This document shows, piece after piece, positions 3,723 to 50,173 of a stretch of DNA of 63,038 nt. Within the stretch, counting starts at the first letter, position 1. Each line of letters starts with the position of its first letter. Source of the stretch: a bacterium. GTDB lineage: Bacteria > Patescibacteriota > Saccharimonadia > Saccharimonadales > SZUA-47. Under the pieces are notes generated by a model. That model saw nothing but the letters and a program-made list of their open reading frames with translations, made no database searches and had not been told where the DNA came from. The DNA lies in assembly GCA_030427125.1 (NCBI GenBank), contig JAUHXF010000003.1:1-63038 (forward strand), in the 5' to 3' direction. The translations under genes were made by a program, and so were the position numbers.

Positions 3723-5906
3723 ATGAATCAAAAATTGTATAGTGAGATTGAAGCTGCTGCTACCCGTGGTGTCGCACCCCATCTAATAACAGATGAGATG
3801 ATCAAAGCAGGCTGGCCTCAGAAGCTCGTGCATGAAACCGTCGATGTTTGGCTGCAAGCTCATAGTCAAACAAAAGGCACGGCTTTCAAAGAATGGATTC
3901 AAAAGTACTATCGAAAGGCACTACCTGCTGTCGGAGTAGTTGTCGTACTGAATGTCATTAGTGTCGGCATCTCACTATTAAAACCGTGGCCAACAAAGAT
4001 TCTAGCTGACTCTGCATTCGGGACCATCCCTGCCCCAGGCATACTCGAACCATATACAAATACGACGACGCTCATTCTGATAACGTCTGCGATGACTATG
4101 GCGTTATTTATATTCGGCACAATATTCGGTGTATTTCGTGATTACCTGCTACTGAAAATAGGCTATTGGCTCAATCGCTCAATTAAGCAGGAGTCGATGC
4201 GTCACATTATGCACCTGCCACTGTTTCACCAGGAACGGCTGTCCAAGGGAGACTACGTCTACCGGCAAAATGTTGTCACGAATAGCCTCTCCGACCTCGT
4301 ACTTGGCACCACATCATCAATCACTGAATCAATTATTGTTATATTTGGCGTACTTGGCATCATGCTTTTCTTCAACGTAGGCCTCACAATCATTACGGTC
4401 ATCCTCATTCCGTTCCTCTTTCTCACCATGCGCTTAATCGGACCGAAGATGGGTCAAACAGCTCGCAAGCTAACAGAGGTTGCATCTGAAACATCATCAC
4501 GTATTAACGAGTCTGTCGATAATGCTGAAACCGTTCAGGCCTTTACGCTTGAGGACAAATTACTTAATAAGATCACAAGATTATGGGATAAGGGCTACGA
4601 GCTCTCAAAGCGCAATCTTCTCTGGGGTGAACTCCTTACTGGAACCAATGGATTCCTCATTGTTCTCGCAACCTCGCTCGTCATGTACATTGGCGGCTCG
4701 GCTGCACTTCGAGGTGAGATGACGCTTGGTGAACTCCTCATATTTATGACCTACATGGGCTACCTACTCGGTCCGGTAGAGAGCCTGGTTGAGCAAGTGA
4801 CAAGTCGCAATCAAAAACTCATAGACGTTAATCGTATCTATGAAGTACTGGCTGATCATGAAGGTATTGAATTCTTGCGCCAGGGCCAACACATGCCACC
4901 ACAAATTCAAGGGCAAATTGAATTTCAAAACGTTTCATACGCATACAAAGACCAGCAGATATTCAAGAACCTCAATCTCACCATCCCGCCAGGACAAAAG
5001 GTGGCAATCATTGGCCCATCAGGTGGCGGTAAAAGTACAATCATGAAACTGCTGCCATTATTCTTAGAACCTGAAAATGGCAAAATCCTCATCGATAACA
5101 TCGACATCGAATCAGTGTCGCTCAAAGAACTTCGTCAACACATTTCGTGGGTTGCTCAAACACCGCAGTTATTTGAAGGGACAATTATCGATAACCTCAT
5201 GGATGGTGATGCCTACCGTGAAGTCTCTAACGAAGAAATACTCGATGCTATCGAAACCGCAAACGTCTCGGAATTCGCTTCTAAATTACCGCTTGGACTT
5301 GCCTCTCCTGCTGGAGAAAATGGTGGTTCACTCAGTGGTGGTCAACGCCAACGCGTGTCTATTGCGCGGGCACTGATCAAGAACGCTCCAATCGTCTGTC
5401 TTGATGAGCCAACGGCTGCGCTTGATGCGAAGAGTGAGAATTATATTCGTGACTCATTACTGCAGATGATCAAAGGAAAGACGGTCGTCATGGTAACACA
5501 CCGTAAGTCACTGCTTGCACTCATGGACGTTGTGTATGTACTTGATAATGGTACCTTGACCGACGTTAACCATCTCGGCGGCCTAGACCACTACCTCGCA
5601 CAGCTTGAAGGCATCGAAGAACAAAAAGCTGCTGCGGAGGTAAAACAATCTGAAGCATCCGAAAAAGTTGAGACTAAAAAGCTTGTTGATGATTATGCAC
5701 AATTTGTCGATTCGCAAGAACCGGAAATGCTTCATACACAACCAGTTATTCAGCAACAGCAAGCTCAACAAAAAGCCACTGTACAACTGGACCCTCAGGA
5801 AGTAAAACCATGGTCACCAGAACAGGCGCAAGCGACAAACCGGCAACCAGAAACAACCCCTGAGCCAGAAAAGTCTGACGACGATATTACGATTCAACTA
5901 CATTGA
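3723..5906 (+). CDS. Fused permease/ATPase ABC exporter (type I exporter, MsbA-like fold) with extra N- and C-terminal regions
   Basis: 727 aa. About 6 TM helices, then Walker A GPSGGGKST, signature LSGGQRQR and Walker B IVCLDEPT. The C-terminal 110 aa or so is a Q/E/P-rich low-complexity tail. Confidence 0.85.
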   Translation: MNQKLYSEIEAAATRGVAPHLITDEMIKAGWPQKLVHETVDVWLQAHSQTKGTAFKEWIQKYYRKALPAVGVVVVLNVISVGISLLKPWPTKILADSAFGTIPAPGILEPYTNTTTLILITSAMTMALFIFGTIFGVFRDYLLLKIGYWLNRSIKQESMRHIMHLPLFHQERLSKGDYVYRQNVVTNSLSDLVLGTTSSITESIIVIFGVLGIMLFFNVGLTIITVILIPFLFLTMRLIGPKMGQTARKLTEVASETSSRINESVDNAETVQAFTLEDKLLNKITRLWDKGYELSKRNLLWGELLTGTNGFLIVLATSLVMYIGGSAALRGEMTLGELLIFMTYMGYLLGPVESLVEQVTSRNQKLIDVNRIYEVLADHEGIEFLRQGQHMPPQIQGQIEFQNVSYAYKDQQIFKNLNLTIPPGQKVAIIGPSGGGKSTIMKLLPLFLEPENGKILIDNIDIESVSLKELRQHISWVAQTPQLFEGTIIDNLMDGDAYREVSNEEILDAIETANVSEFASKLPLGLASPAGENGGSLSGGQRQRVSIARALIKNAPIVCLDEPTAALDAKSENYIRDSLLQMIKGKTVVMVTHRKSLLALMDVVYVLDNGTLTDVNHLGGLDHYLAQLEGIEEQKAAAEVKQSEASEKVETKKLVDDYAQFVDSQEPEMLHTQPVIQQQQAQQKATVQLDPQEVKPWSPEQAQATNRQPETTPEPEKSDDDITIQLH

Positions 5907-6965
5907 TGCGTCTAGATACGCTTCAATAAAGCTATCAATACCGCCATCCAAGACTGCTTGAACATCAGTCGTCTCTGCCCTCGTCCTTGTGTCTTTCACC
6001 ATGGTATATGGATGCATGACGTAGTTTCGGATTTGATTTCCCCAGGCTGCTTCTTCATTCGGACCGCGTAGTTCAGATACTTTTTCTTTATGCTGCTCAA
6101 GTTGGAGCTGGGCAAGTTTCGAACGCAAGATAGTCATCGCCGTTTCCTTGTTTTGTAGCTGTGATCGTTCATTCTGAATAGCAACGACAATATTTGTTGG
6201 AATGTGCGTCACGCGGACTGCAGAATCAGTCGTATTAACTGACTGACCACCTTTGCCGCCGCTCCTATATACGTCTATCTTTAAGTCTGCTTCGTCTATT
6301 TCAACAGACTCCGGTGATGATATTTTCGGCATAATTTCCACGCGCGCAAAACTAGTTTGACGTAGATTATCAGAATTAAAAGGACTTAGACGGACAAGCC
6401 GATGTACACCATGCTCACTTTTCAATGTTCCGTACAAAAATGATGAACCACTTAGTGCAAGCGTGACGCTTTTAATGCCTGCTTCTTCCCCGGCAGACTG
6501 ATCAATAGTTTTAACCGAAACCTCATGAGCCTCCGCCCACCTGCTATACATCCGAAGCAGCATCTCTGCCCAATCCTGAGCATCTGTACCACCGGCCCCG
6601 GCAAATATACTTAAAATAACATCGTTGCCGTCATATGGTCCCGAGAACTGTAACTCACGTTTTGCTGTTTGGAATCTACCTTCTAGCTGCGCGTGCTGAT
6701 CAGCTATATCTGCGGCCAGTGTCTCATCGCCTAGAGCTTCAAGTTCTAGCAGGTCATTAGTTTCCTTTTGTAGCCTCGTCCAAAATTCAACACGTTTTTG
6801 CAATGCAGCAGCTGTACGAGAAATCTCTTGAGCTTTATCTGAATCATCCCAAAATGTCGGCTGTTGCATCTGGCTCTGTACGTCTTGCAACCGTGCTTCA
6901 AGCCCAGCAATATCAAGTTGATCGACTGCTTGATTAACGTTGTCACGAAGCTCTTGCACTAGCAT
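5898..6965 (-). CDS. prfB: Peptide chain release factor 2
   Basis: GGQ motif ([23 protein letters not shown]) and the RF2-specific SPF motif (RLSPFNSDN). It is one uninterrupted 355-aa frame. Confidence 0.9.
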   Translation of the reverse strand: MLVQELRDNVNQAVDQLDIAGLEARLQDVQSQMQQPTFWDDSDKAQEISRTAAALQKRVEFWTRLQKETNDLLELEALGDETLAADIADQHAQLEGRFQTAKRELQFSGPYDGNDVILSIFAGAGGTDAQDWAEMLLRMYSRWAEAHEVSVKTIDQSAGEEAGIKSVTLALSGSSFLYGTLKSEHGVHRLVRLSPFNSDNLRQTSFARVEIMPKISSPESVEIDEADLKIDVYRSGGKGGQSVNTTDSAVRVTHIPTNIVVAIQNERSQLQNKETAMTILRSKLAQLQLEQHKEKVSELRGPNEEAAWGNQIRNYVMHPYTMVKDTRTRAETTDVQAVLDGGIDSFIEAYLDASM

Positions 6966-15483: not shown

Positions 15484-15513
15484 TCAAAAAGACCTCCCTG
15501 GTAGGAGGTCTTT
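15484..15513 (-). terminator. Rho-independent terminator after the heliorhodopsin gene
   Basis: The minus strand reads AAAGACCTCC-TACCAG-GGAGGTCTTT followed by TTGATAG. That is a 10-bp perfect stem running into a 5-U tract, 20 nt after the stop at 15533. Confidence 0.6.
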
Positions 15514-15532: not shown

Positions 15533-16495
15533 TTATGGTCGAAGTGTACCGGCGAAGATTTGCCATGCAAGTGCTGATTTCGCGACGAGCGAAAGAATCA
15601 TATACGCACGCTCACCGTAGAGGTAGTCGCTCCACTTACCTTTCCCTCGATATTGGAGCCACATATTGACTGCAAAGCTCATGAAGAACAGGAAGATGCT
15701 AACGTAAATCCAATATACGAATGTAGGGATATCGCCTGATCCGTACTGGTTTGCACCCCAGAAATACAAACCGACAACTGCCCATGGGCCAAGCCCTGCA
15801 ATCGTACCGACAACATAGCTGAGCCAGTTTGTCTTCTTTGTCGTCTGGTTGTGCACTTCCATAACGAGGCCACAAAGGTTCATTACAGCTGTTGCGCCAA
15901 AGATCATGAGGAGTGTAGATGCATCACTCACACCTGCCAGCATAGCTATCGCAATCATCATAACCGATGCACTTGCACTGTACTCGTACCAGCGGGCTTT
16001 ATTCATGCCGTCTTTGAGCTGTGCATTGTACTTCTTGCGACCGATAGTGGCGATGTATAGATGTGCAAGTGACGAGAGGAAGAAGAACGCAGCAACTAAA
16101 TACGCTAAGTTCACATCAAATAGCGAGCGCTGCGATTGTACGAGCACCGGAGCTCCCTCGCTAGAAGCTAATTGATCTTGCGTAATAAAATTAGTCGTTA
16201 CAGGAAAAAGACTATCTGATCGACTAAGGATAAGTACTGCTACACCCTGTGCAAAGTGCAATCCTGCCATAACCCAATTCCAAATATTGAGTTTAGCGAA
16301 TATGTCTTTCTTGACTGGTGATTTACTCGCAGCTTTCGCACTTACCTTTTTAGTAGTTGTCTTCTTTACTGGAGCCTTCTTCGTTGCAGACTTTGACTTT
16401 ACTGAAGCTGCCTTTGTCGTTGTTTTCTTTTTAGTTGTTGTCTTTTTGCGTGTCGATGTAGCGGTAGACTTCCGCTTTGTTGTAGTTGTTGCCAT
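15533..16495 (-). CDS. Heliorhodopsin with a lysine/threonine-rich N-terminal extension
   Basis: Seven hydrophobic helices. The C-terminus LQYRGKGKWSDYLYGERAYMILSLVAKSALAWQIFAGTLRP is close to the heliorhodopsin 48C12 C-terminus as I recall it, including the Schiff-base Lys in SLVAKSALAW. RWYEYS matches the counterion-Glu segment RWVEYS. Confidence 0.8.
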   Translation of the reverse strand: MATTTTKRKSTATSTRKKTTTKKKTTTKAASVKSKSATKKAPVKKTTTKKVSAKAASKSPVKKDIFAKLNIWNWVMAGLHFAQGVAVLILSRSDSLFPVTTNFITQDQLASSEGAPVLVQSQRSLFDVNLAYLVAAFFFLSSLAHLYIATIGRKKYNAQLKDGMNKARWYEYSASASVMMIAIAMLAGVSDASTLLMIFGATAVMNLCGLVMEVHNQTTKKTNWLSYVVGTIAGLGPWAVVGLYFWGANQYGSGDIPTFVYWIYVSIFLFFMSFAVNMWLQYRGKGKWSDYLYGERAYMILSLVAKSALAWQIFAGTLRP

Positions 16496-16502
16496 GCATA
16501 AA

Positions 16503-16511
16503 ATAATAGCA
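16503..16511 (-). promoter_or_regulatory. Candidate extended -10 promoter (TGCTATTAT) for the heliorhodopsin gene, leaderless geometry
   Basis: The minus strand reads TGCTATTAT, then 7 nt (TTTATGC), then ATG 16495, all inside the 36-nt gap after the VWA gene. Confidence 0.4.
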
Positions 16512-16531: not shown

Positions 16532-17749
16532 TTAGAAATTAATTTCTTCCTCGATAACTTCACCAAGTACTTCAATAATTTCATCTGGTCCAGCGGCAAG
16601 CGTCGTGCTGATAAAGCGACGTGGTAACAAGCCGTCGCCTTCAGGATCGTCTGCATTACCGTCGATACTCCCTGTCCACGATCCGCCTGGTGATGCTATT
16701 GCCGCCGAAATCGCCCGAGTAGCGTTGTTTGAATTAATACTCAGCACAGTGAATTGAGAACTGAGCCCAGGATAACCATCACCGTCAAATACCGTACCAT
16801 CTTTAAGCTGATTGTACTCTCCATACCCGTCCAGTACAGAGAAGCCACCCCCATTGCCATTTGTCCAGAACGATGGCTGTGAAGATGTCTTTTTCAGGAC
16901 TGAACAACAACTGTTTTGATTTGGAGACGAAAAGCCCGTCCCCCATGCATCCGTAAATAGCACAAACTGTACATCAGTGGCACCTTCTAGGTCTAGTTCA
17001 TCTCCCGGCCCATAGACAGATCCCAAGCGCATGCGAGCTAATGATCCAGGTAAGTGATCTTGGTAATCCGACGTAGAGGAGCTTCCCGGCCCAAATCGCC
17101 TATCCCACGTTGTTGCAGTAACTGAGTCATCTGTAAATGGCACGGTGACATCGTATTTATGTTCCTGGCTATAGTGATTCGTCCCATACTGCACGACTGC
17201 CACCTCTGAGGTTGGAGCTTCAGTGAGCACATACTCAATCGCGGCATCAACCGTCGATTTACTGTCCAGCCACTCAGACACACTCATCGAGCCTGAATTG
17301 TCTACGATGAATATAAAACGAACGCTCGAAGTACCTGATGTCGTATTCGTAATCTTTCCTTGAATCTCTCGAGTAAATAATGCGTTCGATTCGTCGGTTT
17401 TTTTATAAACACGCCCAATACCCTGTATATCTTGCTGCGTATTAGTCGGGTTTGAGTAGCCTTTTGTTGTCACTTCAAACTTCACAATATGCGTATCAGT
17501 CTCATAAAGAGTCGTCTCCGGTGTGCCAGCATAGGCAATATCGAGCTCATACTGCTCTTTTGCATAGTCCATGGCTGACGTAGCAGCAAGCTGCGCTTGA
17601 CGAACTAACTCTTGCCGAACAGTTGTCTGATATGATTGCAGCGGCAATGAAATAGCTAGTACCGCCAAAATAGTTATCAGCGGTATAAATGCAATAAGGG
17701 TAGCAAGTAAAAAGCCTTTCTCTTCTTTGTTTTTTATGAACTTTTGCAT
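16532..17749 (-). CDS. Pilin-like (lacking Glu5) membrane-anchored von Willebrand factor A domain protein, a candidate pilus-tip component
   Basis: N-terminus KGFLLATLIAFIPLITILAVLAI resembles a prepilin leader plus hydrophobic helix but has Thr at position +5. MIDAS motif DxSxS in FIFIVDNSGSMS. Its start overlaps the stop of the upstream pilin gene by 1 nt. Confidence 0.7.
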   Translation of the reverse strand: MQKFIKNKEEKGFLLATLIAFIPLITILAVLAISLPLQSYQTTVRQELVRQAQLAATSAMDYAKEQYELDIAYAGTPETTLYETDTHIVKFEVTTKGYSNPTNTQQDIQGIGRVYKKTDESNALFTREIQGKITNTTSGTSSVRFIFIVDNSGSMSVSEWLDSKSTVDAAIEYVLTEAPTSEVAVVQYGTNHYSQEHKYDVTVPFTDDSVTATTWDRRFGPGSSSTSDYQDHLPGSLARMRLGSVYGPGDELDLEGATDVQFVLFTDAWGTGFSSPNQNSCCSVLKKTSSQPSFWTNGNGGGFSVLDGYGEYNQLKDGTVFDGDGYPGLSSQFTVLSINSNNATRAISAAIASPGGSWTGSIDGNADDPEGDGLLPRRFISTTLAAGPDEIIEVLGEVIEEEINF

Positions 17750-18558
17750 CAGTTAATCTTCCTTATGGTGTGTTTTACTTCGGCCTCAACTTCTTGGCCA
17801 AATACTTTATCACCCAATGTGAGTGTGATTTCTACTTTGTCAGCCGAGGACGGAAATGTCGTTTCGATATTGTCCTCTGCGAAATAGCGTACCTGCATAT
17901 CAACGACATTTTCCGATAATAAGGAATCTTCGGTTCGACAATTACCCGAGCCGACATTCCCCGCTGGGCACGAAGTGAGTTTTGCATTATCCAGACATGT
18001 AGACGTCGTTGGTGTGCAAGGATTATCAGTAGCAACGTCTATGCTACAAGTCGAAAATGTCGGGACAAGCGTGCGTTTGCGCAAATTACTATAGTTAGAG
18101 TCAGGATTTTCCTCAACGAAGTAAATAACATTATTAATCGCAACTGGATTGTCAGTAATATCAGATGTTTCACATGGATTCAATGCACGCCGAACGATGT
18201 GTCGATCCTCATCTCGCCTTGTTGAGTCGAGAGCTACCTCATTAATGATAAGCGTTTGTGGATCTGAATTATGCGTCCATCCACCGCTCGGCGCGAAAGG
18301 GTCGCTAAGATTTGCATCGGTTTGCTCTCCATACGCAATCGTGAACAGCAACTCATCTTGCAGATTAATGAGTAGGCGCTGTCCTGTTGTACGCAAGTCA
18401 GAGCGCGCAGATTCAGCAAGCACCTCAGTGTATTGCAAGAAGAGTGAGCCGACAAGTGTCACGAGAATAATTGACGTCAGTGGGATCACTACAGCTATCT
18501 CGGTCATTGTGAAGCCGTCCTGCTTCTCATTACGCTTGTGCCGCCGCCAAAACATCAT
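17749..18558 (-). CDS. Type IV prepilin-like minor pilin / pseudopilin, Cys-rich
   Basis: Class III signal peptide: basic leader, then G|FTMTEIAVVIPLTSIILVTLVGSLFL with Glu5. The mature part has eight Cys. It overlaps its neighbours by 1 nt at each end. Confidence 0.7.
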   Translation of the reverse strand: MMFWRRHKRNEKQDGFTMTEIAVVIPLTSIILVTLVGSLFLQYTEVLAESARSDLRTTGQRLLINLQDELLFTIAYGEQTDANLSDPFAPSGGWTHNSDPQTLIINEVALDSTRRDEDRHIVRRALNPCETSDITDNPVAINNVIYFVEENPDSNYSNLRKRTLVPTFSTCSIDVATDNPCTPTTSTCLDNAKLTSCPAGNVGSGNCRTEDSLLSENVVDMQVRYFAEDNIETTFPSSADKVEITLTLGDKVFGQEVEAEVKHTIRKIN

Positions 18559-20105
18559 CAGTCACTCACTCCAAATTCTCGAATAAATGTCGCGTATTCG
18601 ACGCGTTGGCGAATTCCTTGCGCATCGTATTCAATTACCGCTGTTGCTTTCAGGAGTGTCGGGTTATCAGCATCACCATCTGCATCGGTGTCTTCATATG
18701 GACCCGTGTCTGTCATAGTAGACGTCTCAGACCAATTAATCACTAATCTAGGCGCTGGATTACGCTCAGCGACACGTTCACCTGATCCTGAAATATATTG
18801 AATTGCAAATGCCATATCGTTATCAACTTGCCAACCAACTCGATTAATAATCTCTTGCACAATTGACGTCACATCGACTCGTGTATCTTCGCCTACTTCA
18901 CCAGCAGACCATGGATCTGGTGACCATGTTGTTGTTGCCAACGTACCAACACTCCCGTCCGAAGAGTCACTATCAACAGCATTATCCACCGCGAAGGATC
19001 CAGTCCAAGGCTGAGCATTATCCCTGTCAACACCGGTCACAAGGAGATTAACTGCAGTGGAGTCTGTTTCGTCAGCAGTAAACTCAATATACGCACTATC
19101 GATTGTGGCACCCTGCGTCGTATCAATATCATCGAAGATAATACCAATAGATTGATTACCGCGTGACCCGTCTTCTGCCATTTCTAGATCAGAACTGCTA
19201 AAGAATAGATCTCCAGGCGAGTCGCTTGCGTCAGCTCCTTGCTGTTCTACGATGTCTCCCGGGACACCAGCTGAGTACGCCTCAAGCTCCGAAAACACAT
19301 TAAAGTTATTATCTTCTGCGTCCTCGATGTAGAGTCGCCAATATCTATAAGGTGTCGAATTTGAGCTCACATCTATATCCTGCGGATTACTACCCGTACT
19401 GCATGGTATGCCATTATCAGACAACCCGTCGACAATAGTAGTCCAACCACTATTACTATTCGGGGAATTATTTTTTGCTTCAACGCGGAAATCATCAGCT
19501 CCATATCCACAGTAGTACCAATCTACTCGAATCGTATCAACCACCCTAGCAGACCCTAAATCAATAGATGGCGACGCCATATTATTCGGATTATATGAGT
19601 ATGCACTATAGGTATAGTTCGAGTAACTATCATCACGTATTTGCCATTCTCGCCAGTAGTCACCTGTCGCATCATGATAGTTAATACTGTTTATCTCAGA
19701 ACCACTAACAAAAGCTGCATCGGCAGTAATAGTTTGTGTGAAGTCGGTTGTCTCGGTAACTGTCGTCGAGATTACTTCGCTCTCAGGTTCAATATACACC
19801 TTTGCTTCTGCGTTATTTAAGCTGGCTACTTCTGCTTCGGCCGAAAAGTCCTCAACCTCATACGAAAAGGCATTATCGCCAATTGGTATATTGTCATAGC
19901 CCAGATTAATGTAGTCTTGAATCTTCTTGAACGCAAGCGAGCCAGCTTCGGCTCGTAATGCTGTCTGCGCATTTAAGCTCGTACTGTTAATTACGATGAC
20001 GTAGATAATGCTAATGAGCATGGAAACAAGTGCAAGCGAAACGAGCACTTCCACCATACTGAATCCATGTTGTTTGTGTTGTTTATGAACCTTGGGCATA
20101 CCCAC
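18558..20105 (-). CDS. Large type IV prepilin-like protein carrying an F5/8 type C (discoidin)-like carbohydrate-binding domain
   Basis: G|FSMVEVLVSLALVSMLISIIYVIV with Glu5. Residues 135-278 or so read IDLGSARVVDTIRVDWYY...FRVEAKNNSP...WTTIV...RYWRLYIEDAEDNNFNVFSELEAY, a discoidin-like signature. The ORF-track start is a GTG, and ATG two codons later is an alternative. Confidence 0.7.
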   Translation of the reverse strand: MGMPKVHKQHKQHGFSMVEVLVSLALVSMLISIIYVIVINSTSLNAQTALRAEAGSLAFKKIQDYINLGYDNIPIGDNAFSYEVEDFSAEAEVASLNNAEAKVYIEPESEVISTTVTETTDFTQTITADAAFVSGSEINSINYHDATGDYWREWQIRDDSYSNYTYSAYSYNPNNMASPSIDLGSARVVDTIRVDWYYCGYGADDFRVEAKNNSPNSNSGWTTIVDGLSDNGIPCSTGSNPQDIDVSSNSTPYRYWRLYIEDAEDNNFNVFSELEAYSAGVPGDIVEQQGADASDSPGDLFFSSSDLEMAEDGSRGNQSIGIIFDDIDTTQGATIDSAYIEFTADETDSTAVNLLVTGVDRDNAQPWTGSFAVDNAVDSDSSDGSVGTLATTTWSPDPWSAGEVGEDTRVDVTSIVQEIINRVGWQVDNDMAFAIQYISGSGERVAERNPAPRLVINWSETSTMTDTGPYEDTDADGDADNPTLLKATAVIEYDAQGIRQRVEYATFIREFGVSD

Positions 20106-22877: not shown

Positions 22878-24413
22878 TTAACTTTCGAAACGTAATCTAC
22901 GTATTAACCACTGTTTATCAAGCGTGCTCAAAAACCAGCCAGCTCGAGGGCCTGAGTCTTTTCCGATGAGTAGCTTATAGAGTGATGTAAATAATTCTTT
23001 TGGTTGCATACCGACCTCATCGCGAAGGCTATAGACTGCCTTATGGAACCACTCACCATCGGCGTCTTCTGGTGCGCTGGAAATCTTATTAGCAAGTAAT
23101 ACAAATAGCTGTTTCTGTGAATCGCTGAAGTCAGCGTCATCAACTGAATCAATGATTGAGAATCTTGTATCCTCGTCTGCCCATGTATCCAACCAATGAT
23201 CGATAAAGGCAAGCTCTCGTCTAACAATTTCTTCATCTTCGCGAGCTTCTTTGGCATACTCTGTACGTTCAATCACATCGATTGTCTTTTGTGGATCACG
23301 CAACGAAGCTTGATAACTAACATACAGATGCGTAAACGGCACACGGCTCACTGTCGGCTGTTCAACACCCTGAAGACAGAGCTCTAGCAGCTGGTTTTCT
23401 TGCTCGGTCTTGTCGGGCTTTGCAAGTAATTCACTAAACTCATCGAAGAGCTTAATGAGTGTGTCGCCAGTATCGAAGAACAGTAGCTTGTCCGGACTAT
23501 AACGCAGTATAAAGAACCATATCAACTCAGGAGGAAGAATTTTCAGCAAGTCAGCTGCTGTGATGGTATCACCTGCACTTTTACTCATCTTCTTTGTATC
23601 ACCGGTTCGGTTGATGAAATCATATGGTATCGGTAGTGGAGCATCCGCCGAAAACACATCTTGCACAATAACTGCACCAGTGTCGTACGAGCCACCTTTT
23701 GTGGCGTGATCACGTCCGAACGGCTCAGCATCCACACCAAGTTTCCACCATCGCGCAGGCCAATCTATACGCCAGTTTAACTTCACCATACCATCCGTAT
23801 AGCTGATGCTTTGCTCGTTGTTATCGGCGTCAAGGTATGTAACCGTTTTATCTTCTTTCGAAAAACCTACATATGCTCTATTTTTTAGTCTACCGTTCTC
23901 AACAATCTGTACTGGTGACCATTGTGGATCCAGCTTCCGGCCTGATACTTCCTCGAGTGCTGCGCGTACTGCAGGCAGATTTTCTAACGTCTTCTCGATT
24001 GCATCGACAAAAAACCCATCGCGATATTTTTCGTGTGCATGCATGACTTCCATATCAAGATGAAGCCCCTCTGCCGCCACAAGAAGGTCGGCGATGAAAT
24101 AATCAGCATATGAACTAGCTTTGGCTGAATCAGGAGACGGCACATCACACAGTGGCATCCCAAGGTACTGCGAAAAACTCTCATCAACATCGACAGGCAC
24201 TTTTCGGAACACATCCAGGTCATCAGACACGTGAATGTGCTTCGCATCGCGACCTCGCCGCTTCAGCTCCCTGTAGACTGCTTCCGCGGTCAGAACCTCA
24301 CGCAATGTTCCTAAGTGATAGGTACCTGACGGAGACACGCCTGAAGACACAACAATCTCTCTATCAGGATGTTGTGAAATTAAAGAATCAACGATGTTGT
24401 TCAACCAATTCAT
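22878..24413 (-). CDS. lysK: Lysyl-tRNA synthetase, class I (archaeal-type)
   Basis: SGVSPSGTYHLGTLREV (HIGH-type motif in the class I LysRS context) and KKMSKSAGD (KMSKS). The 511-aa length fits. Confidence 0.85.
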   Translation of the reverse strand: MNWLNNIVDSLISQHPDREIVVSSGVSPSGTYHLGTLREVLTAEAVYRELKRRGRDAKHIHVSDDLDVFRKVPVDVDESFSQYLGMPLCDVPSPDSAKASSYADYFIADLLVAAEGLHLDMEVMHAHEKYRDGFFVDAIEKTLENLPAVRAALEEVSGRKLDPQWSPVQIVENGRLKNRAYVGFSKEDKTVTYLDADNNEQSISYTDGMVKLNWRIDWPARWWKLGVDAEPFGRDHATKGGSYDTGAVIVQDVFSADAPLPIPYDFINRTGDTKKMSKSAGDTITAADLLKILPPELIWFFILRYSPDKLLFFDTGDTLIKLFDEFSELLAKPDKTEQENQLLELCLQGVEQPTVSRVPFTHLYVSYQASLRDPQKTIDVIERTEYAKEAREDEEIVRRELAFIDHWLDTWADEDTRFSIIDSVDDADFSDSQKQLFVLLANKISSAPEDADGEWFHKAVYSLRDEVGMQPKELFTSLYKLLIGKDSGPRAGWFLSTLDKQWLIRRLRFES

Positions 24414-31988: not shown

Positions 31989-32016
31989 TGTACACTAATA
32001 GAATTGAAGGGTGAAT

Positions 32017-33066
32017 ATGAATCTTGAAGAGTATCAGTCAGAGCTAGACAGCCTAAAGCAAAAGCTTGAAGACCCAAGCTACTTCAGTTCAAAAGAATAC
32101 CCAAAAACTGCAAAACGAATCGCTGAACTGGAAGAGCTAATTGAGACAAACAAAAATCTGCAAAGCGCACAGAAAGCACTAGGTGAAGCTCAAGAATTAG
32201 CAAAAGGCAATGATGAACTAGCAGAACTTGCTCGTGCAGAAGTCGAAGAAACTGAAGCCAAAATTCAAGAAATTGAAACAAAGCTGCAAGAATTACTGAT
32301 TCCAAAAGATCCAAACGCAGACAAAGATTGCATTTTCGAAATCCGTGCTGGTGCTGGTGGTGATGAGTCTTCCCTGTTTGCCGGAGAGCTGTATCGCATG
32401 TACGTGAAGCAAGCCGAAATCGCTGGCTACAAAACTGAGCTGCTTGGTGAGAGCCCGTCAGAAGTTGGTGGCTATAAAGAAATTTCATTTGCAGTACGGG
32501 GTGCTGGCTCATATGGCCACTTCAAACTCGAGGCAGGTGTACACCGTGTCCAGCGAGTACCAGCGACCGAGTCACAAGGTCGAGTTCATACATCAACAGT
32601 GACAGTTGCCGTCTTGCCGGAAGCCGAGGAAACAGATATAGAGATTGACCAAAACGACTTGCAGATTGATACGTATCGCTCGAGTGGAAATGGTGGTCAG
32701 TCAGTCAACACAACCGACTCAGCTGTGCGTATCACCCACAAACCAAGCGGAATAGTCGTCACCATGCAAGACGAGAAATCACAGATAAAGAATCGTGAGA
32801 AAGCTATGGGTGTACTCCGATCGCGATTGCTTCAAGCCAAACTTGATGAAGAACAGGCTAAAGCTTCAGCCGCTCGTAAAAAACTTATCGGTTCTGGTGA
32901 CCGTTCAGAGAAAATCCGTACGTATAACTTCCCGCAGGACCGCATTACCGACCACCGAATCGGTTATTCACGCAGCAACATCCCGTCTGCCCTGTCAGGT
33001 GACATCCAAGATATCCTCGATGAGCTTAAAAAAGCCGAACACGAACTACTAAAGTCAGAAAACTAG
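32017..33066 (+). CDS. prfA: Peptide chain release factor 1
   Basis: PAT tripeptide ([16 protein letters not shown]) and GGQ ([24 protein letters not shown]). I prefer ATG 32017, with GAAGGG 5 nt upstream, over the GTG at 32011. Confidence 0.9.
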
Positions 33067-43990: not shown

Positions 43991-46900
43991 CTATCTCACC
44001 TGTAGGCGCAACGTTGATATACCGAGCTCGGTTTCCCCATCACCTCCAGAGCACACAATACGCAATTGGACTTCTTCCGCTTCAGTTATATCTGAGCTTA
44101 CGTCGTTCCAATCAGTCTTTATGCTCGTCGCATTGTCAGCATCTACGCTGCCATCCATTGTTACCCAATCTTCAGATCCAGAGAGTTGGTATTGCATAGA
44201 ACACTGTGTTCCCGTTGAGCCAGCCGTACTAATAGATGCAATTATTCTGTACTCAGATACAGAGCGCAGATCGAGCCAGGTTCGAGGCTGACCTGGCATT
44301 TCACTCTCATCAGATTCTACCGCCCACTGCGTAATGTTATTTGCAATGATGTATTCACTTACTACAGATGTGACACAGTCAACCCATTCGTTGTCCTGGT
44401 AGCAGCGGAACTTCTGCATGTATTCGTTATAGTATTGTGCACCATTGACACCTATAGGATCATCTGGTGAGTTTGAGCGAGACAGGATGAATAATACTGC
44501 TGATGGATCAGATGAACCGCCGCCAATCTGTACCACACCGCCCTCAGTATTCACACTGAAGAGATCTATACCATTTTCATCTGCGATGTTGAACGCCTTC
44601 TCTGAAGTCACACGAAGACCAAGCGAACCATCGCCGCTCAAGGTAAATGTATCATTGCCTGCGTACGTTACTTGCAGAACTGCATCATTCGCTGCTTCAG
44701 CCTCGAGTGCAACCTGCTTCGCTTCAACGGTGTATGCGCCGAGTACGTTACCGACCGATCGAATACCACTGAAGTTGTTATCGATACCACCTGCGAGTAG
44801 TGTAATTCCATTAATGTTTACCAACTCTCCTTCTCGTGTGAGTCGTATTATTCCGTCTGTAGCGACACTGTTTACATCTATATCAGTGAACTGTTGCGGG
44901 AACTCAAGCCCATCAGCTGGGATGCTATAGTTTGTTTCTGAAACATAATATGTAAGGCCGACAAATACATCGATCAAGCCGTCTTCGCTGGCATCTTCCA
45001 TCGCGACACCTAGCGCTGTACCGGTCTGCGTCGCCTTAACCGCTCGGCCGTCTGGACCACTCGTCAGGTAATCCCCCTTCTCGATCAAGCCATTCGCTAC
45101 ACTCACTTTTGTTGGCAAACGACCCTTCAAGCCTACTGGCACACCATCGACACCGGCGTCGAGAATAATCGCTGCATCGGAAGAGACTACACCAGCAAGA
45201 CCCTTTTGGTATTGCTGACTTGATTTAGCGACTGTGCGATTATCTACAAAGTAAACTACATCACCAGGCTCTGCACCATCACTGTTCTTGTAGTTCTCGG
45301 CGATATCTGCACCATTAGAGATGTTATTGGTGCCGTCTGAAAATACATCTCCATCACTATCTACTCTAAAGACAACATTGCCGACAGAGCCAACATCACT
45401 TCTTAGGGCCAGTAGGTCGACATTTGATGTCGAGCTTGCATTATAGCCTTCAATGACATTGTCACTATATGTAAATGGACCTAGTTCAGTAATGGTAATA
45501 GTATCGATTCCAAAGTCATTATGCCAATTAGTACCTGCGGCCGGTAATGTCACAACAAATCGTACTTGCGTAGAAGGATCGCTCACCACACCACCACCTA
45601 GGTCTAAACTTTCAAAATTCCAGACATCTGTTGGACCTGTAGGCTGATCACCACCACCATACGTTCCTCGGGTCACCCAACCTGCCCCAGCTTCATTTGT
45701 TTGTACTGTTAGTATCGCAGTGTTATCATCACCTCTTTGATTCCAGTAAAAATCAATTGATAGACCATTTGTAGCATCGAACGTAGAGTTATTTGTCATA
45801 GTAAATACATCGCCGAAAGCACCAGGAGTAGAGGCTTCCGTGTATACATATCCGTCCGGGTTGCCACCCTGTCCTGAGACAGGACCGACATCTGTAGATG
45901 GAGTCTGATCGGTGTCATGAACCCAGAAACCATTGCTACCACCCGCTGCTTGTAGGCCTGGTCCTTGCGGCGACACGAACGTCCAAGCTGCTTCATCGGC
46001 ATCATTATCTGCATTAAATGTATATGGTCCGGTTGAAGTACCTGGCAGTTGTGCTGCACCAGTCGTGATCGCACCTTCGAAATAAGCAGTCGAGGACACG
46101 ATGCCGTTAGTACCAGCAACATTGAGCACTGTACCTACATCTAGGCTATTTGCAGTCGTCACTGCGCCGTTGAGGTTAACAGCACCCGTTCCTGTACTAA
46201 ACGTACCTGTTCCACTTATTGAGAAGTTTCCGGCAGTTTGCGTATATCCTGTTACGCCACTCAATGCCCCACTATTTATAATGAGTCCGTTGATTGTGTT
46301 CACGCTAGTCGGAGCTGTAATAGCATTGTTCGCAGTTAAGAAATCTACAATAACTGTAGTCGCATCAACGGTTCCTGTTGTGGAGAGACCGCCTACTGTC
46401 GCAGTGCCAGATGCATCTATCGTCGTGACTCCAGCGACTGCACCTGCATTTATAATGCCGTTATTTCCAATGTCTAGCGAACCTGCTGACAGCGCGATAC
46501 CGTTATTTGCAGTAAACAGTCCGTCAACATCGAGTGCTCCTGTAAATACTGAGTCACCCGCTACATCAATATCAAGTACGGTGTTTCCATTGGTAAAGAG
46601 CCGCAAGCCATTTGCATCAGTTGTACCGAGCTGCGCTGTGCCGCCAAATGCATTTCCACCATTTAGGAATTCCAGACCTGATGAGCCACCACCACCACCG
46701 CCACCTACAACCGCATCACTATCTACTACAAAGAAATTCCACGATCGATCAACGCGAACACCAGCAGTGCCGCCATTGTCACCTTCGTGCACATCAACAT
46801 CGAAACCAGCTGTTGAAATGTTATCTGCTGTTATGATGACGTCGTCAAGCGTTGCGACTGGCTCATCAACAGTGAGCTGGATAGTGTAGTTTGCAGTAGA

Positions 46901-49900
46901 TGCCGCTGAATCGAATGTTACCCGATAATCACCTGTTGCATTCTTAGTAACAGTTGCACCTTCTTCATTGAGAGCAGAACCAGCAACACCATCATACTTA
47001 CCAAAGGCTAGTACACCTTCAAGTAGTGGTGCGCTTGTAGGAGTGGTTAGTGAGACCCACTGTGAACCGTCATAACCCTCGAAGTCAGCACCAGTCCAGC
47101 GTATCGTACCAGCAACCGCACTCACCGTATTTCCTACGCGCAACCCGTCGTTAAACGACTGCAGTGAACTAAATCCTTGTGCAGTATCAAGTCTTGCAAT
47201 ATTGGCAGAAAGCCTTGCATCACCAATTGTTCCAGTCGTGATCTGCGTACCATTAAGGGCAGTCAATCCGCTTCCATCACCCGTGAATGATGAGGCCACA
47301 ACATTGCCGCTGCTCGTGATATCACCTCCAGATATGTCGCCTTCTACCAAAAGGCCCGCGACTTGAGATAGATCACTGTTCACAATTGAGAAGGTTGTCG
47401 TGCCCGATGCATCAAACAGGTCAAGTGTCGTTGTACCTGTACCTATGCGTTGCAAGGTATCAGCATCAAGGATAATATCGCCACTTGCGCTAGACAGTGT
47501 GAGATCTGCAAACGTACCGCTTGAAATTGTTAAGCCATTTGCAGCGGTAATATCACCGTCTATTGTCAATCCACCGTCAACAGTTAGATCATTTTCAAAC
47601 GTCGCAAGACCAGCAGATGTAAAGGTTAATGCGTTGCTTCCGTTGGTTATGATGTTGAGCCCAAATGTATCAGTCGTTCCAAGGATAGCACCTGCACCAA
47701 AACCATTTCCTCCTTGTTCAAACGCAGTTCCGCCGCCTCCGCCGCCTCCGCCACTTGCAGCAGAAACAGGGACAATCGTTGCAGATGTACCGCCATGGGT
47801 CGTGATGTTTCCAGTGCTGCCATCAACGAAGAACTCAACATAATCTCCTGCGGTTAAGTCAAGAATAACGCTTACACTTCTCTCGACAGGATCAACTGCG
47901 GTGTGCACAAACGTATCATGATTGTATACACTCGCGCCGTTCACCTGGACCAACAAGTTCGTCAACGCATTAGCGCTGGTCTCTAGCATGTAGTTTGCAT
48001 CGACTTTATAAACTCCGTCAGTTGCAATTGTGAAGCGACCGTCTGCAGGAGTGTACACAATACCGTTCGATGCATTTGTTGTGCTTGAATACGCTGCATA
48101 ACTACCTGATTGGAACACATCGTATAAAGCTGTGCTAGCATTTGAGTTCGCTGTCGTCGTAACACTGATGTAGTCGCCGGCTGGATCTACACTGCCACCA
48201 CTTGTCAAGCTCACCCAGTCAGTTCCGTTATAGACCTCGAGATCAGCACCAGTCCATCGAATATTTCCAGCATTCGTAAGTGCACTATTGCCAACGGTTA
48301 AGCCACCGCTAAACGTTGTGTTGTTATCGAAAGTGTTTGTACCGCTGAAGTTCTGCACACCATCAAGTCGAGCGATATTCGACGACAGCACAGAGTCTGA
48401 GATTGTACCGCTTGAAATGGCTGAACCGTTTAGGTCAGTTAACACTGAGCCATCACCAGAGAAGCTAAGCCCAGTAATTGAGCCTTCAACAGTTAGATTG
48501 GCTACTTCTCCTGGATCACTGTTTGTAACCACCAGCCCAGTTGCCCCGCTGTTGTCGTTGAGGTCAATTGTCGTACTACCAGCACCATTTCGACGAATAG
48601 TGTTGTCAGCCAAAACAAGCGTATCGCTGGCTGAGTCTAACGTGAGGTTACCAGCACCACCACTAGAAATCGTCAAAGCATCAGCAGCCGATATATTGCC
48701 AATATTTACCAAATCTTCACTATTAAGGTCTAGTGAATCGCCGCTCACCGTGAGGCCGTTGTTGAATGTTGCAGCACCTAATGCGTCGATTGAAAGGGCA
48801 ACATTTCCGTCCGTCACGATGTCGAGGCCATTTGTATCAGTCGTACCGATAACACCAGTAGCATCGAAAGCATTTCCACCTTGCTGGAATGCAGTCGTTC
48901 CGCCGCCACCCCCATCGTTACCGAGTCTCGTTACCGTCATACTTGTGGCATTTGAGATAGTTGTGAACGATTGTGAGGTACCAGCACCCACAAGTCGAAG
49001 CGTATCACCAGCATCAAGCTGCAGTGTCACAGTTGCAGCAGAAGTACCTTGTGTCTCTGTAGTGATTCTTCCATAGTGATAGGACTGTCCACCAGATACA
49101 TCGCTGTATCCACCACCAGTGTCAAGCTGCAGCTTCGCGTTAAATCCAGATCGAGTACCGCTTGCTAATCGACTCGTTACTTGGTAGGAAATCTCATAAT
49201 AGCCATCTTCTGTTACCGTCACTTCATCTGCTGCCAGACTCAATACCGTCGGATTTGAGTTACTAAGCGTTCCGTCGAGGTTGATAGTCGTGAATGACCC
49301 TGACGGAATTGTTGCCCCGCCAGTTGCATCAAAGAATGTTGCCGTTGCTGATGAAACTGCACCAGCACCTCCAGCTGTCAGCGAAACCCAATCAGCTCCG
49401 TTATAGACCTCGAGATCAGTGCCTTGCCAGCGGATAGTTCCAGCAGTTGTCGAGGTTGAATCGCCAAGTGTCACTCCACCTGCGAGCACTGCGTTTCCAT
49501 TCTTATCGACTGTAAGCGCATTTGAACCGTCACCCTGCAATTGGAGCAATGCCCCACTACCAGTCTGGTTGAGTCGCAATGCAGCTACTGCTGAATTGAG
49601 TGCCTGAACGCTTGATGGTGATAGTTGCGCGAGGTCATCACCGGTCAATGCGTTACCCGCTCCATCTAAAACAGCCCCGGCACGAAAGGCGTACGGGACT
49701 GCAGTGAGTTTGAAGCGTGGCGTCATCTCGCCATCCGATTCAACATTCATGCCGAGCCAAAGTTCTTGATCCCACGGTATCGTATTCGGGAATGCTGTCA
49801 CATCGCCGAGGTAGACGCTAAAGTAACCGTTGCGAATCGTGACTTGATTGCCACCTGTTCGGGATTCAGTCCAGAGTGTTGAACCACCTGTATCAACAGA

Positions 49901-50173
49901 GTAGAGATTGAACTCGATATCATAGTCACCATCATCGACAAGTGATCCGCCGTTTGTCAGCAATCGCCCCTGGAAGTTGAGGGTGTCAGACGTAGCAGCT
50001 TCAGCTGGTGTGAAGATAGCGAGAGAAGTAATAACAGATACGAACAAAATAAAAATTGGCAAAAGAAAACTAATGGTAGTTCCCTTTTGCCATTTGGCAT
50101 GCCTTTGCTTATTAGGAAGCACGTGTCGCAAAATATTGCCCGCTTTTGTTTTTGTTTTTTTGATTTCTACCAA
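43991..50173 (-). CDS. Giant modular cell-surface fibre protein (2060 aa) built from tail-fibre-like modules
   Basis: N-terminal basic segment plus TM/signal (ISFLLPIFILFVSVITSLAIFTPAEA). Three super-modules each open with a poly-Gly run followed by TAF(Q/E)QGGN(A/G)F, and contain S(F)SGDGS.LT.LNG and IRW.G.D(L/F)E.Y(N/D)G..WVSLT motifs. A MAM-like domain ends NWHNDFGIDTITI. The TTG start at 50173 is uncertain. Confidence 0.8.
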   Translation of the reverse strand: MVEIKKTKTKAGNILRHVLPNKQRHAKWQKGTTISFLLPIFILFVSVITSLAIFTPAEAATSDTLNFQGRLLTNGGSLVDDGDYDIEFNLYSVDTGGSTLWTESRTGGNQVTIRNGYFSVYLGDVTAFPNTIPWDQELWLGMNVESDGEMTPRFKLTAVPYAFRAGAVLDGAGNALTGDDLAQLSPSSVQALNSAVAALRLNQTGSGALLQLQGDGSNALTVDKNGNAVLAGGVTLGDSTSTTAGTIRWQGTDLEVYNGADWVSLTAGGAGAVSSATATFFDATGGATIPSGSFTTINLDGTLSNSNPTVLSLAADEVTVTEDGYYEISYQVTSRLASGTRSGFNAKLQLDTGGGYSDVSGGQSYHYGRITTETQGTSAATVTLQLDAGDTLRLVGAGTSQSFTTISNATSMTVTRLGNDGGGGGTTAFQQGGNAFDATGVIGTTDTNGLDIVTDGNVALSIDALGAATFNNGLTVSGDSLDLNSEDLVNIGNISAADALTISSGGAGNLTLDSASDTLVLADNTIRRNGAGSTTIDLNDNSGATGLVVTNSDPGEVANLTVEGSITGLSFSGDGSVLTDLNGSAISSGTISDSVLSSNIARLDGVQNFSGTNTFDNNTTFSGGLTVGNSALTNAGNIRWTGADLEVYNGTDWVSLTSGGSVDPAGDYISVTTTANSNASTALYDVFQSGSYAAYSSTTNASNGIVYTPADGRFTIATDGVYKVDANYMLETSANALTNLLVQVNGASVYNHDTFVHTAVDPVERSVSVILDLTAGDYVEFFVDGSTGNITTHGGTSATIVPVSAASGGGGGGGGTAFEQGGNGFGAGAILGTTDTFGLNIITNGSNALTFTSAGLATFENDLTVDGGLTIDGDITAANGLTISSGTFADLTLSSASGDIILDADTLQRIGTGTTTLDLFDASGTTTFSIVNSDLSQVAGLLVEGDISGGDITSSGNVVASSFTGDGSGLTALNGTQITTGTIGDARLSANIARLDTAQGFSSLQSFNDGLRVGNTVSAVAGTIRWTGADFEGYDGSQWVSLTTPTSAPLLEGVLAFGKYDGVAGSALNEEGATVTKNATGDYRVTFDSAASTANYTIQLTVDEPVATLDDVIITADNISTAGFDVDVHEGDNGGTAGVRVDRSWNFFVVDSDAVVGGGGGGGSSGLEFLNGGNAFGGTAQLGTTDANGLRLFTNGNTVLDIDVAGDSVFTGALDVDGLFTANNGIALSAGSLDIGNNGIINAGAVAGVTTIDASGTATVGGLSTTGTVDATTVIVDFLTANNAITAPTSVNTINGLIINSGALSGVTGYTQTAGNFSISGTGTFSTGTGAVNLNGAVTTANSLDVGTVLNVAGTNGIVSSTAYFEGAITTGAAQLPGTSTGPYTFNADNDADEAAWTFVSPQGPGLQAAGGSNGFWVHDTDQTPSTDVGPVSGQGGNPDGYVYTEASTPGAFGDVFTMTNNSTFDATNGLSIDFYWNQRGDDNTAILTVQTNEAGAGWVTRGTYGGGDQPTGPTDVWNFESLDLGGGVVSDPSTQVRFVVTLPAAGTNWHNDFGIDTITITELGPFTYSDNVIEGYNASSTSNVDLLALRSDVGSVGNVVFRVDSDGDVFSDGTNNISNGADIAENYKNSDGAEPGDVVYFVDNRTVAKSSQQYQKGLAGVVSSDAAIILDAGVDGVPVGLKGRLPTKVSVANGLIEKGDYLTSGPDGRAVKATQTGTALGVAMEDASEDGLIDVFVGLTYYVSETNYSIPADGLEFPQQFTDIDVNSVATDGIIRLTREGELVNINGITLLAGGIDNNFSGIRSVGNVLGAYTVEAKQVALEAEAANDAVLQVTYAGNDTFTLSGDGSLGLRVTSEKAFNIADENGIDLFSVNTEGGVVQIGGGSSDPSAVLFILSRSNSPDDPIGVNGAQYYNEYMQKFRCYQDNEWVDCVTSVVSEYIIANNITQWAVESDESEMPGQPRTWLDLRSVSEYRIIASISTAGSTGTQCSMQYQLSGSEDWVTMDGSVDADNATSIKTDWNDVSSDITEAEEVQLRIVCSGGDGETELGISTLRLQVR

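Follow-up and report, generated by a model that had tools for sequence, protein, structure and literature searches.

A heliorhodopsin gene with a polycationic N-terminal tail in a Saccharimonadales chromosome fragment: a computational analysis

What could a heliorhodopsin (HeR) be doing in a bacterium that probably obtains its retinal from others, and what might be added by a long cationic extension at its N-terminus? This question is raised by a gene at positions 15533-16495 of the bacterial contig JAUHXF010000003.1 (GenBank assembly GCA_030427125.1), whose 63,038 nucleotides, i.e. the whole stretch of DNA analyzed here, are referred to below as the window. HeRs are abundant; their function is settled in few cases, and in each of these it consists in the regulation of a partner by binding, the reported partners being glutamine synthetase, photolyase and an ABC exporter (PMC11109279). 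The answer that we favor, and consider probable with ample room for doubt, is drawn mainly by analogy with the characterized HeRs: the window copy would be a light sensor with a slow photocycle, working on scavenged retinal and equipped with an added tail that binds polyanions.

A previous sequence-only reading of this DNA had interpreted the seven-transmembrane protein encoded here as a HeR. This core claim is correct, yet not new: 80 HeRs with the SLVAK motif have been reported from Saccharimonadia (Chiriac et al. 2022, PMC9166423), and Patescibacteria are listed among the HeR-bearing phyla in the survey by Bulzu et al. 2021 (PMC8612252). By organism group, family and SLVAK motif the window gene belongs to this catalogued set from Saccharimonadia and the Candidate Phyla Radiation (CPR), and the presence of a HeR in a Saccharibacterium devoid of retinal synthesis is as such nothing new. 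Four features had, as far as literature searches show, no earlier description: the cationic tail, the constant position of the gene in the chromosome, its leaderless transcription and the recurrent disappearance of the Schiff-base lysine from orthologues.

The heliorhodopsin gene, its fold and its chromophore site

The gene and its functionally relevant parts, with the codons numbered from the annotated start, are as follows.

15533..16495, minus strand: coding sequence of the HeR, 320 codons followed by the stop TAA (15533..15535), defined by the list of open reading frames (ORFs), Pfam and NCBIfam profiles, relatives in the PDB and the structural model
15536..16303, minus strand: seven-helix HeR domain, residues 65-320, defined by the Pfam match, the AlphaFold2 model and Foldseek
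16304..16495, minus strand: disordered polycationic N-terminal tail, codons 1-64, defined by composition, the model and a six-frame filter
15578..15580, minus strand: codon K306, retinal Schiff-base Lys, aligned to TaHeR K238 and 48C12 K241
15590..15592, minus strand: codon S302, which completes SxxxK with K306
15983..15985, minus strand: codon E171, counter-ion Glu in helix C, aligned to TaHeR E108 and 48C12 E107
16061..16063, minus strand: codon H145, helix B, partner of H80, aligned to 48C12 H80 and TaHeR H82
16256..16258, minus strand: codon H80, helix A, aligned to 48C12 H23

The Pfam profile PF18761 (Heliorhodopsin) matches residues 69-318 over its full length (model positions 1-242) with E=3.7e-91 and 305.2 bits, the cut-off being 26.7, and the NCBIfam equivalog NF038020 (HeR) scores 305.6 bits against a cut-off of 100. 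The PDB entries that match best are those of TaHeR (6is6, E=1.8e-69) and 48C12 (6su3/9ljj, E ~8e-50), to which the window HeR is overall 49% (255 columns) and 42% identical, respectively. The AlphaFold2 model (mean pLDDT 79), for which 51 relatives served as input, comprises seven helices between residues 65 and 318 (approximately 65-90, 130-149, 166-186, 192-218, 224-251, 258-283 and 291-318) as well as the long beta-hairpin in the A-B loop that is typical of HeRs (residues 96-129, strands 96-107 and 117-129). Comparison of this model with TaHeR by Foldseek yields E=4.4e-19 and a target-normalized TM-score of 0.88.

The sequence-only reading had placed a Schiff-base Lys in helix G, a counter-ion Glu in the motif RWYEYS and His residues in helices A and B, and all these assignments are borne out by the alignments. 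The segment S302-L-V-A-K306, of which the Lys belongs to LVAKSAL, aligns without gaps with S237...K241 of 48C12 and with K238 of TaHeR; RWYEYS supplies E171, AGLHFAQ supplies H80 and SLAHLYI supplies H145, and S141 aligns with S76 of 48C12. The near-identity of the C-terminus with that of 48C12, stated in the same reading, corresponds to 34 identities in the last 41 residues between the window HeR and a 48C12-type chain. The gene coordinates had also been given correctly; the strand (minus) had not been stated, and the tail of residues 1-64, which lies outside the HeR domain, was absent from that reading. K306, S302, E171, H80, H145, S141 and many pocket positions are invariant among the 51 relatives, at identities down to 60%, a pattern that points to selection for binding of the chromophore in the clade of the window. 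This strict conservation of the pocket suggests that the window copy still uses retinal. Counted on the loops of the model, K and R residues number 8 inside, plus 22 in the N-terminal tail, versus 3 outside; the inverted topology with the N-terminus inside, as already anticipated, fits this charge distribution and is likely. From the sequence evidence we regard the window gene as confirmed to encode a genuine, intact and canonical HeR.

TaHeR from the Thermoplasmatales archaeon SG8-52-1 (6IS6) is the closest solved structure and has the Lys, the Glu, the His/His pair, the SxxxK motif and the A-B beta-hairpin in common with the window protein. Its host lacks retinal synthesis, and TaHeR captures external retinal; it differs in being archaeal and in having no long N-terminal tail, its HeR domain starting near the N-terminus. 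All of E107, H23, H80, S237 and K241 of 48C12, the founding member of the family from a freshwater actinobacterial fosmid (6SU3, 6UH3), are matched in the window HeR; 48C12 has no cationic tail, and its Q213 is replaced by Met in the window HeR, as in TaHeR. This relatedness bears on another possibility, namely that light drives or gates the transport of protons by the window protein, as in the viral heliorhodopsin V2HeR3. Such transport has been reported for a viral HeR in the literature cited in PMC11109279, but the window HeR shares its core residues with the two proteins to which it is 49% and 42% identical, and 48C12 exhibits neither pump nor channel activity, its tunnel being blocked by hydrophobic residues and its E107 holding the proton (PMC6951262). 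We therefore consider proton transport very improbable for the window protein.

The polycationic tail and the transcription unit

The tail (residues 1-64, MATTTTKRKSTATSTRKKTTTKKKTTTKAASVKSKSATKKAPVKKTTTKKVSAKAASKSPVKKD) has the composition K20 T17 A9 S8 V4 R2 P2 D1 and a net charge of about +21. It is modeled without secondary structure at a pLDDT of ~40 and, by the topology of HeRs, should be cytoplasmic. No in-frame ATG, GTG or TTG occurs between codons 1 and 76, the latter lying inside helix A, so translation of the tail cannot be skipped. A mis-called start that would leave the tail untranslated is ruled out by this gap and by the spacing of the promoter described below to the annotated ATG.

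More than 100 database relatives of 300-345 residues (60-92% identity) open with MATTTKK and possess tails that are alike in composition and different in sequence. Retention of the composition despite a drifting sequence extends over relatives of 55-92% identity. To obtain related loci, one genome per species was scanned; a relative was found in 530 genomes, and the best 80 of the 530 were examined as loci. Tails of 55-80 residues with a net charge of +18 to +26 are encoded in approximately 20 of these 80 loci; in a few others the N-terminus comprises 20-50 residues, and in the rest it is basic and 3-25 residues long. A six-frame composition filter recognized the tail as the sole segment of its kind in the window. 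Applied to 1.43 Mb of related loci, it retrieved only HeR-type proteins, the basic SecA C-terminus of two loci and non-coding frames of one high-GC locus. This near-restriction to HeR-type proteins rules out a genome-wide habit of adding basic low-complexity tails. Searches with the tail alone returned 181 candidates from an index of 5.8 billion proteins, none of them with E<=1, no match in the PDB at E<=10 and no match in Pfam at E<=1, although low complexity defeats searches of this type.

The tail could also be a functionless by-product, i.e. a neutral low-complexity expansion of a short basic N-terminus by slippage of A-rich AAR/ACN codons. In favor of such an origin are the intermediate tails of 20-50 residues, the A content of the tail DNA (46%), a weak 15-nt tandem repeat therein, and the lack of any motif conserved in the tails of the window clade beyond MATTT. 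However, acidic residues are almost excluded in every lineage (0-4 per 55-80 residues), and no other protein in the 1.43 Mb grew such a segment. Moreover, the tail and its composition persist in a lineage only 25-29% identical in the seven-helix domain, and this divergent lineage keeps the motif KAKTKT. Neutral expansion thus appears to us an unlikely explanation.

Lysine-rich tails resembling histone H1 occur in bacterial nucleoid and polyphosphate proteins, e.g. in mycobacterial HupB/MDP1, in the PAKKA repeats of Ku and in Pseudomonas AlgP. They are long and disordered, consist of Lys to about one third and are almost devoid of acidic residues; Ala and Pro are abundant in them. They bind polyanions and are carried by soluble DNA-binding proteins. 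The window tail shares with them the Lys content (K 20/64, R 2/64), the near absence of acidic residues (D+E 1/64) and the disorder predicted by the model. It differs in being rich in Thr and Ser and in its location on a membrane photoreceptor; no homology between them was found, and binding by the window tail is only proposed. Extensions of the cytoplasmic N-terminus are known from other HeRs: the study by Bulzu et al. 2021 catalogues ten types of N-terminal extension, of which only the MORN and zinc-ribbon fusions are interpreted there (PMC8612252). In these MORN-HeR and Znf-HeR proteins the extra module is likewise proposed to recruit partners, but it is folded and recognizable by profiles, whereas the window tail is disordered, of low complexity and devoid of Pfam or PDB matches.

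The signals that flank the gene suggest how it is expressed.

16503..16511, minus strand: extended -10 promoter element TGCTATTAT, separated from the ATG by 7 nt, conserved across related loci
15486..15513, minus strand: terminator-like hairpin AAAGACCTCC-TACCAG-GGAGGTCTTT, a 10-bp stem followed by a run of five T

In 62 of 81 related loci the in-frame start of HeR is preceded by the pattern TGnTAnnnT at a distance of 5-10 nt (mostly 6-7); among ATGs of this DNA as a whole, the share is 1.2%. No Shine-Dalgarno sequence precedes the HeR ATG. With such a spacing of the -10 element, the 5' end of the transcript would coincide with the A of the ATG or lie directly beside it, and the mRNA would be leaderless or nearly so. 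This conserved promoter also provides a firm start codon for expression constructs. The hairpin begins 19 nt past the stop codon, and hairpins with different stems occupy the matching place in five related loci (L006, L007, L009, L032 and L048). With a promoter and a terminator of its own, the HeR gene is most likely monocistronic, which weakens any guilt-by-association with its neighbors.

About six genes of the window besides HeR share this arrangement; starts with the pattern 5-8 nt before them include the following (1978, 13509, 14195, 16495, 39438 and 43395, all on the minus strand), and the corresponding genes include those for an M23 peptidase, a PD-(D/E)XK nuclease, rsmE, HeR, an unknown 253-amino-acid (aa) protein and parA. 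Most other genes of the window have GGAG-type ribosome sites instead. These arrangements suggest that a sizeable share of the transcripts in the host organism may be leaderless. Despite very dense gene packing, no Rfam family and no tRNA gene reaches the threshold anywhere in the 63 kb, and consequently there is no riboswitch or other RNA element of a known family near the HeR gene.

Chromosomal slot, lysine-less orthologues and proposed function

Almost all of the best 80 of the 530 related genomes are labeled Candidatus Saccharibacteria, Saccharimonadales or Saccharimonadia (top match 82% identical), in agreement with the earlier conjecture that the organism belongs to the CPR. The window and the related loci have a gene order in common over ~20 kb, and this order is kept in ~60 of the 80 loci. 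Upstream it reads UppS - RseP - Rce1-like - aminoacyl-tRNA synthetase - GreA - (lysyl-tRNA synthetase, LysRS) - (MacB-type ABC) - [variable 1-3.5 kb] - HeR. After HeR it continues with (TRAM/U5 RNA methyltransferase) - RsmE - PD-(D/E)XK nuclease - seryl-tRNA synthetase (SerRS) - HPF - SecA - M16 peptidase - RF2 - FtsEX. Given this shared order and the identity of 76-82% between SecA of the window and of the related loci, the window is a fragment of a Saccharimonadales chromosome, and its host, judged by these comparisons, is a Saccharimonadales (Saccharibacteria, CPR) bacterium. Complete chromosomes of the relatives measure 669-778 kb. The HeR gene occupies one fixed housekeeping slot across Saccharimonadales, which permits clean comparisons of orthologues throughout the order.

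According to Pfam, the 42 large ORFs of the window encode housekeeping proteins, ParAB and two giant proteins. As the sequence-only reading had remarked, carotenoid and retinal biosynthesis is not represented: none of these 42 ORFs encodes a phytoene synthase or desaturase, a lycopene cyclase, blh/brp or a second rhodopsin. In rhodopsin-bearing Saccharibacteria no blh was found in bins that are 79-98% complete, and actinobacterial hosts have been proposed as the source of their retinal (Jaffe et al. 2022, PMC9296517). The SacR type-1 rhodopsins described there come from the same host group and depend on retinal made by others, as is proposed for the window HeR; they differ from the window HeR in belonging to another rhodopsin family, in their opposite topology and in being outward proton pumps (PMC9296517). 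The same authors noted that the apoprotein of HeRs from other organisms without retinal has an opening by which retinal is rapidly taken up (PMC9296517).

When 1.84 billion cluster representatives were searched exhaustively, 3,125 HeR-like clusters emerged. Of the 145 full-length 50%-cluster representatives closest to the window HeR, 67 are without the Schiff-base Lys, as judged from an alignment of helix G that contains no gaps; the residues found in its stead include Gly, Ala, Ser, Leu, Val, Tyr, Arg, Asn, Gln and Thr. Two Lys-less proteins were traced to their loci, a Lys->Gly form and a form that combines Lys->Leu with Glu->Gly; both have kept the HeR slot and the leaderless promoter, and thus they are expressed orthologues rather than pseudogenes. 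A long cationic tail is present in 31 of the 67 Lys-less and in 14 of the 78 Lys-bearing representatives (Fisher p=3e-4, uncorrected for shared ancestry). We also observed that Lys-less proteins of the HeR fold often lack the Glu and both His (loci including L083, L085, L086 and L088).

A divergent family of 89 clusters (P0121-P0209; Pfam HeR scores of 88-116 bits) lies exactly in the HeR slot as well. It was met in locus L040, where a 306-aa ORF (L040 10864..11784, plus strand) adjoins the HeR gene (L040 10001..10804) and combines a MATTTKK tail with a divergent HeR-like body in which SLVAK is replaced by SLVIR. Nearly all members have a tail of 45-80 residues bearing the KAKTKT motif, F or Y at the position of H80, Pro at that of H145 and mostly Asp at that of E171; the Schiff-base position is occupied by Lys in 60 members and by Arg in 30. 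In a neighbor-joining tree, which is rough and serves only for these two statements, the Arg forms make up a single clade, and long tails are scattered among the canonical HeRs.

Focused searches of the literature for cationic tails or Lys-less HeRs in CPR bacteria found no reports. The surveys PMC9166423 and PMC8612252 retained only SxxxK proteins, and their text, as far as available, contains no description of a Lys/Thr tail, a fixed slot, a leaderless promoter or Lys-less orthologues. The Lys-less orthologues amount to a natural experiment on the use of a rhodopsin scaffold deprived of its chromophore, in bacteria that rely on other organisms for retinal.

Following the characterized HeRs (48C12, TaHeR and those that regulate partners), we propose that all-trans retinal binds at K306 and that the window protein transports no ions. 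Green light would bring about a long-lived signaling state, in which the cytoplasmic face would alter the activity of a partner. As the published genomics of Saccharibacteria leads one to expect, the cell would not make the retinal and would instead acquire it from its host or from the community around it. The part assigned to the tail is our own proposal: it may serve as an effector or tether that binds electrostatically to a cytoplasmic polyanion, the candidate ligands being nucleoid DNA, RNA or ribosomes, polyphosphate and acidic lipid head groups, and in this way it would set the sensor beside its target or link the target to light. A HeR dimer would project two tails, each of them reaching, by our estimate, up to ~20 nm if extended. 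The tail can be viewed as a built-in candidate output module.

Several points weigh against this reading. To our knowledge, there has been no experiment on any Saccharibacteria HeR. The tail has no detectable homologue or domain, and its ligand is a guess from charge alone. The absence of retinal synthesis genes is a statement about 63 kb of the genome only. None of the ten classes of neighbors used for partner inference (Shim et al. 2024, PMC11109279) is found in the transcription unit of the HeR. Finally, the Lys-less orthologues keep the protein and its promoter, and often the tail as well; at least some of what these proteins do in this lineage therefore seems to need no retinal, which suggests a light-independent component.

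This last point can be taken further, to a main job that is independent of light altogether: the seven-helix body would anchor the cationic tail, e.g. as a tether between the membrane and the nucleoid or the ribosome or as a binder of polyphosphate, and retinal photochemistry would be an optional extra retained by the window copy. The number of Lys-less forms among the closest representatives, the higher frequency of the long tail in them, and their retention of the syntenic slot and the leaderless promoter argue for it. On the other hand, K306, S302, E171, H80, H145 and the pocket are invariant in the 51 sequences of the clade, and many canonical Saccharimonadales HeRs have N-termini of only 3-25 residues, and we are inclined to doubt that light is dispensable to this extent. 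A more general proposal can be put forward tentatively, although on balance we would not expect it to be correct: the slot would hold a membrane-anchored polycationic tether throughout Saccharimonadales, with the tail, bound to nucleic acid or to some other polyanion of the cytoplasm, as the conserved business end and photochemistry as a modulator lost repeatedly. If it were true, the window copy would be a light-switchable tether in a lineage without chromophore synthesis of its own, and light could be signaled directly from the membrane to the nucleoid or to the ribosome with no transducer protein.

Neighboring genes and other features of the window

The adjacent genes were considered as possible partners of the HeR. 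Upstream of the HeR gene, and co-oriented with it, the window contains three type IV pilin-like genes, which end 36 nt before the HeR start.

16532..17749, minus strand: pilin-like gene, 405 aa, with a pilin-like N-terminus and the vWA MIDAS motif DNSGSMS
17749..18558, minus strand: pilin-like gene, 269 aa, with the prepilin motif DG|FTMTE
18558..20105, minus strand: pilin-like gene, 515 aa, with the prepilin motif HG|FSMVE, Pfam N_methyl and a galactose-binding-like domain

They probably encode adhesive minor pilins; minor pilins of the lectin type, to which they are similar, have been described for Saccharibacteria (PMC11623550). The trio stands away from any gene for pilus machinery in the window. 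It is confined to the loci closest to the window and accompanies long-tailed canonical HeRs in ~13 loci. The other HeR neighbor in the window encodes a TRAM/U5 RNA methyltransferase.

It is conceivable that the HeR regulates such neighbors, i.e. that it exerts light control over adhesion or motility by type IV pili or is linked to the MacB-type ABC transporter. The orientation and proximity of the trio, the occurrence of a pilin-like upstream gene together with a long-tailed canonical HeR in L001-L009, L014, L015, L032, L048 and L086, the role of type IV pili in host binding and twitching of Saccharibacteria (PMC11623550) and the regulation of an ABC exporter by an actinobacterial HeR (PMC11109279) are compatible with this possibility. 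Nevertheless, the HeR gene has its own conserved promoter and terminator, the entire region forms a single long array of co-oriented housekeeping genes, most loci lack the trio, whose co-occurrence with the tail can be explained by shared ancestry, and the ABC system is of the MacB rather than the OmrDE type. Regulation of the neighbors therefore strikes us as quite improbable. An operon with the pilin-like trio was rejected as the default, in view of the conserved promoter directly before the HeR ATG and the terminator after the gene. The MacB-type ABC system was likewise set aside as a partner by analogy to OcHeR-OmrDE: it belongs to a different ABC class and to a separate unit 3.7 kb upstream.

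Elsewhere the gene upstream of HeR encodes MsrA, a DUF427-like protein, LysRS or a membrane protein on the opposite strand. MsrA (PF01625, GCFWG motif) lies directly upstream of the HeR or HeR-like gene in L017, L025, L029, L047, L050, L057, L062, L083 and L085. This adjacency fits the published idea that links HeRs with oxidative stress; the window has no MsrA gene at that position.

The region also exhibits features unrelated to HeR. In the window the gene after greA (22878..24413, minus strand) encodes a class I LysRS (PF01921), as it does in close relatives, while in other Saccharimonadales this position is taken by a class II LysRS (PF00152 + PF01336, with a LysS-like N-terminus), the loci compared being L028, L039, L076, L083, L086 and L088. 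This looks like an in-place displacement of one class by the other. The window further contains two class I release-factor genes with PCRF and RF-1 domains (5898..6965, minus strand, and 32011..33066, plus strand), presumably RF2 and RF1. The presence of both suggests that all three stop codons are read as stops, unlike in some other CPR lineages.

Of the 42 large ORFs, 37 are on the minus strand. Two of these are giant and almost domainless: one of 2060 aa (43991..50173, minus strand) with a BclA_C/C1q-like module at residues 677-800, and one of 3793 aa (51589..62970, minus strand) with an endosialidase-chaperone (Peptidase_S74) module near the C-terminus. Both may be surface fibers. The GC skew changes its sign at ~56-58 kb, inside the 3793-aa ORF.

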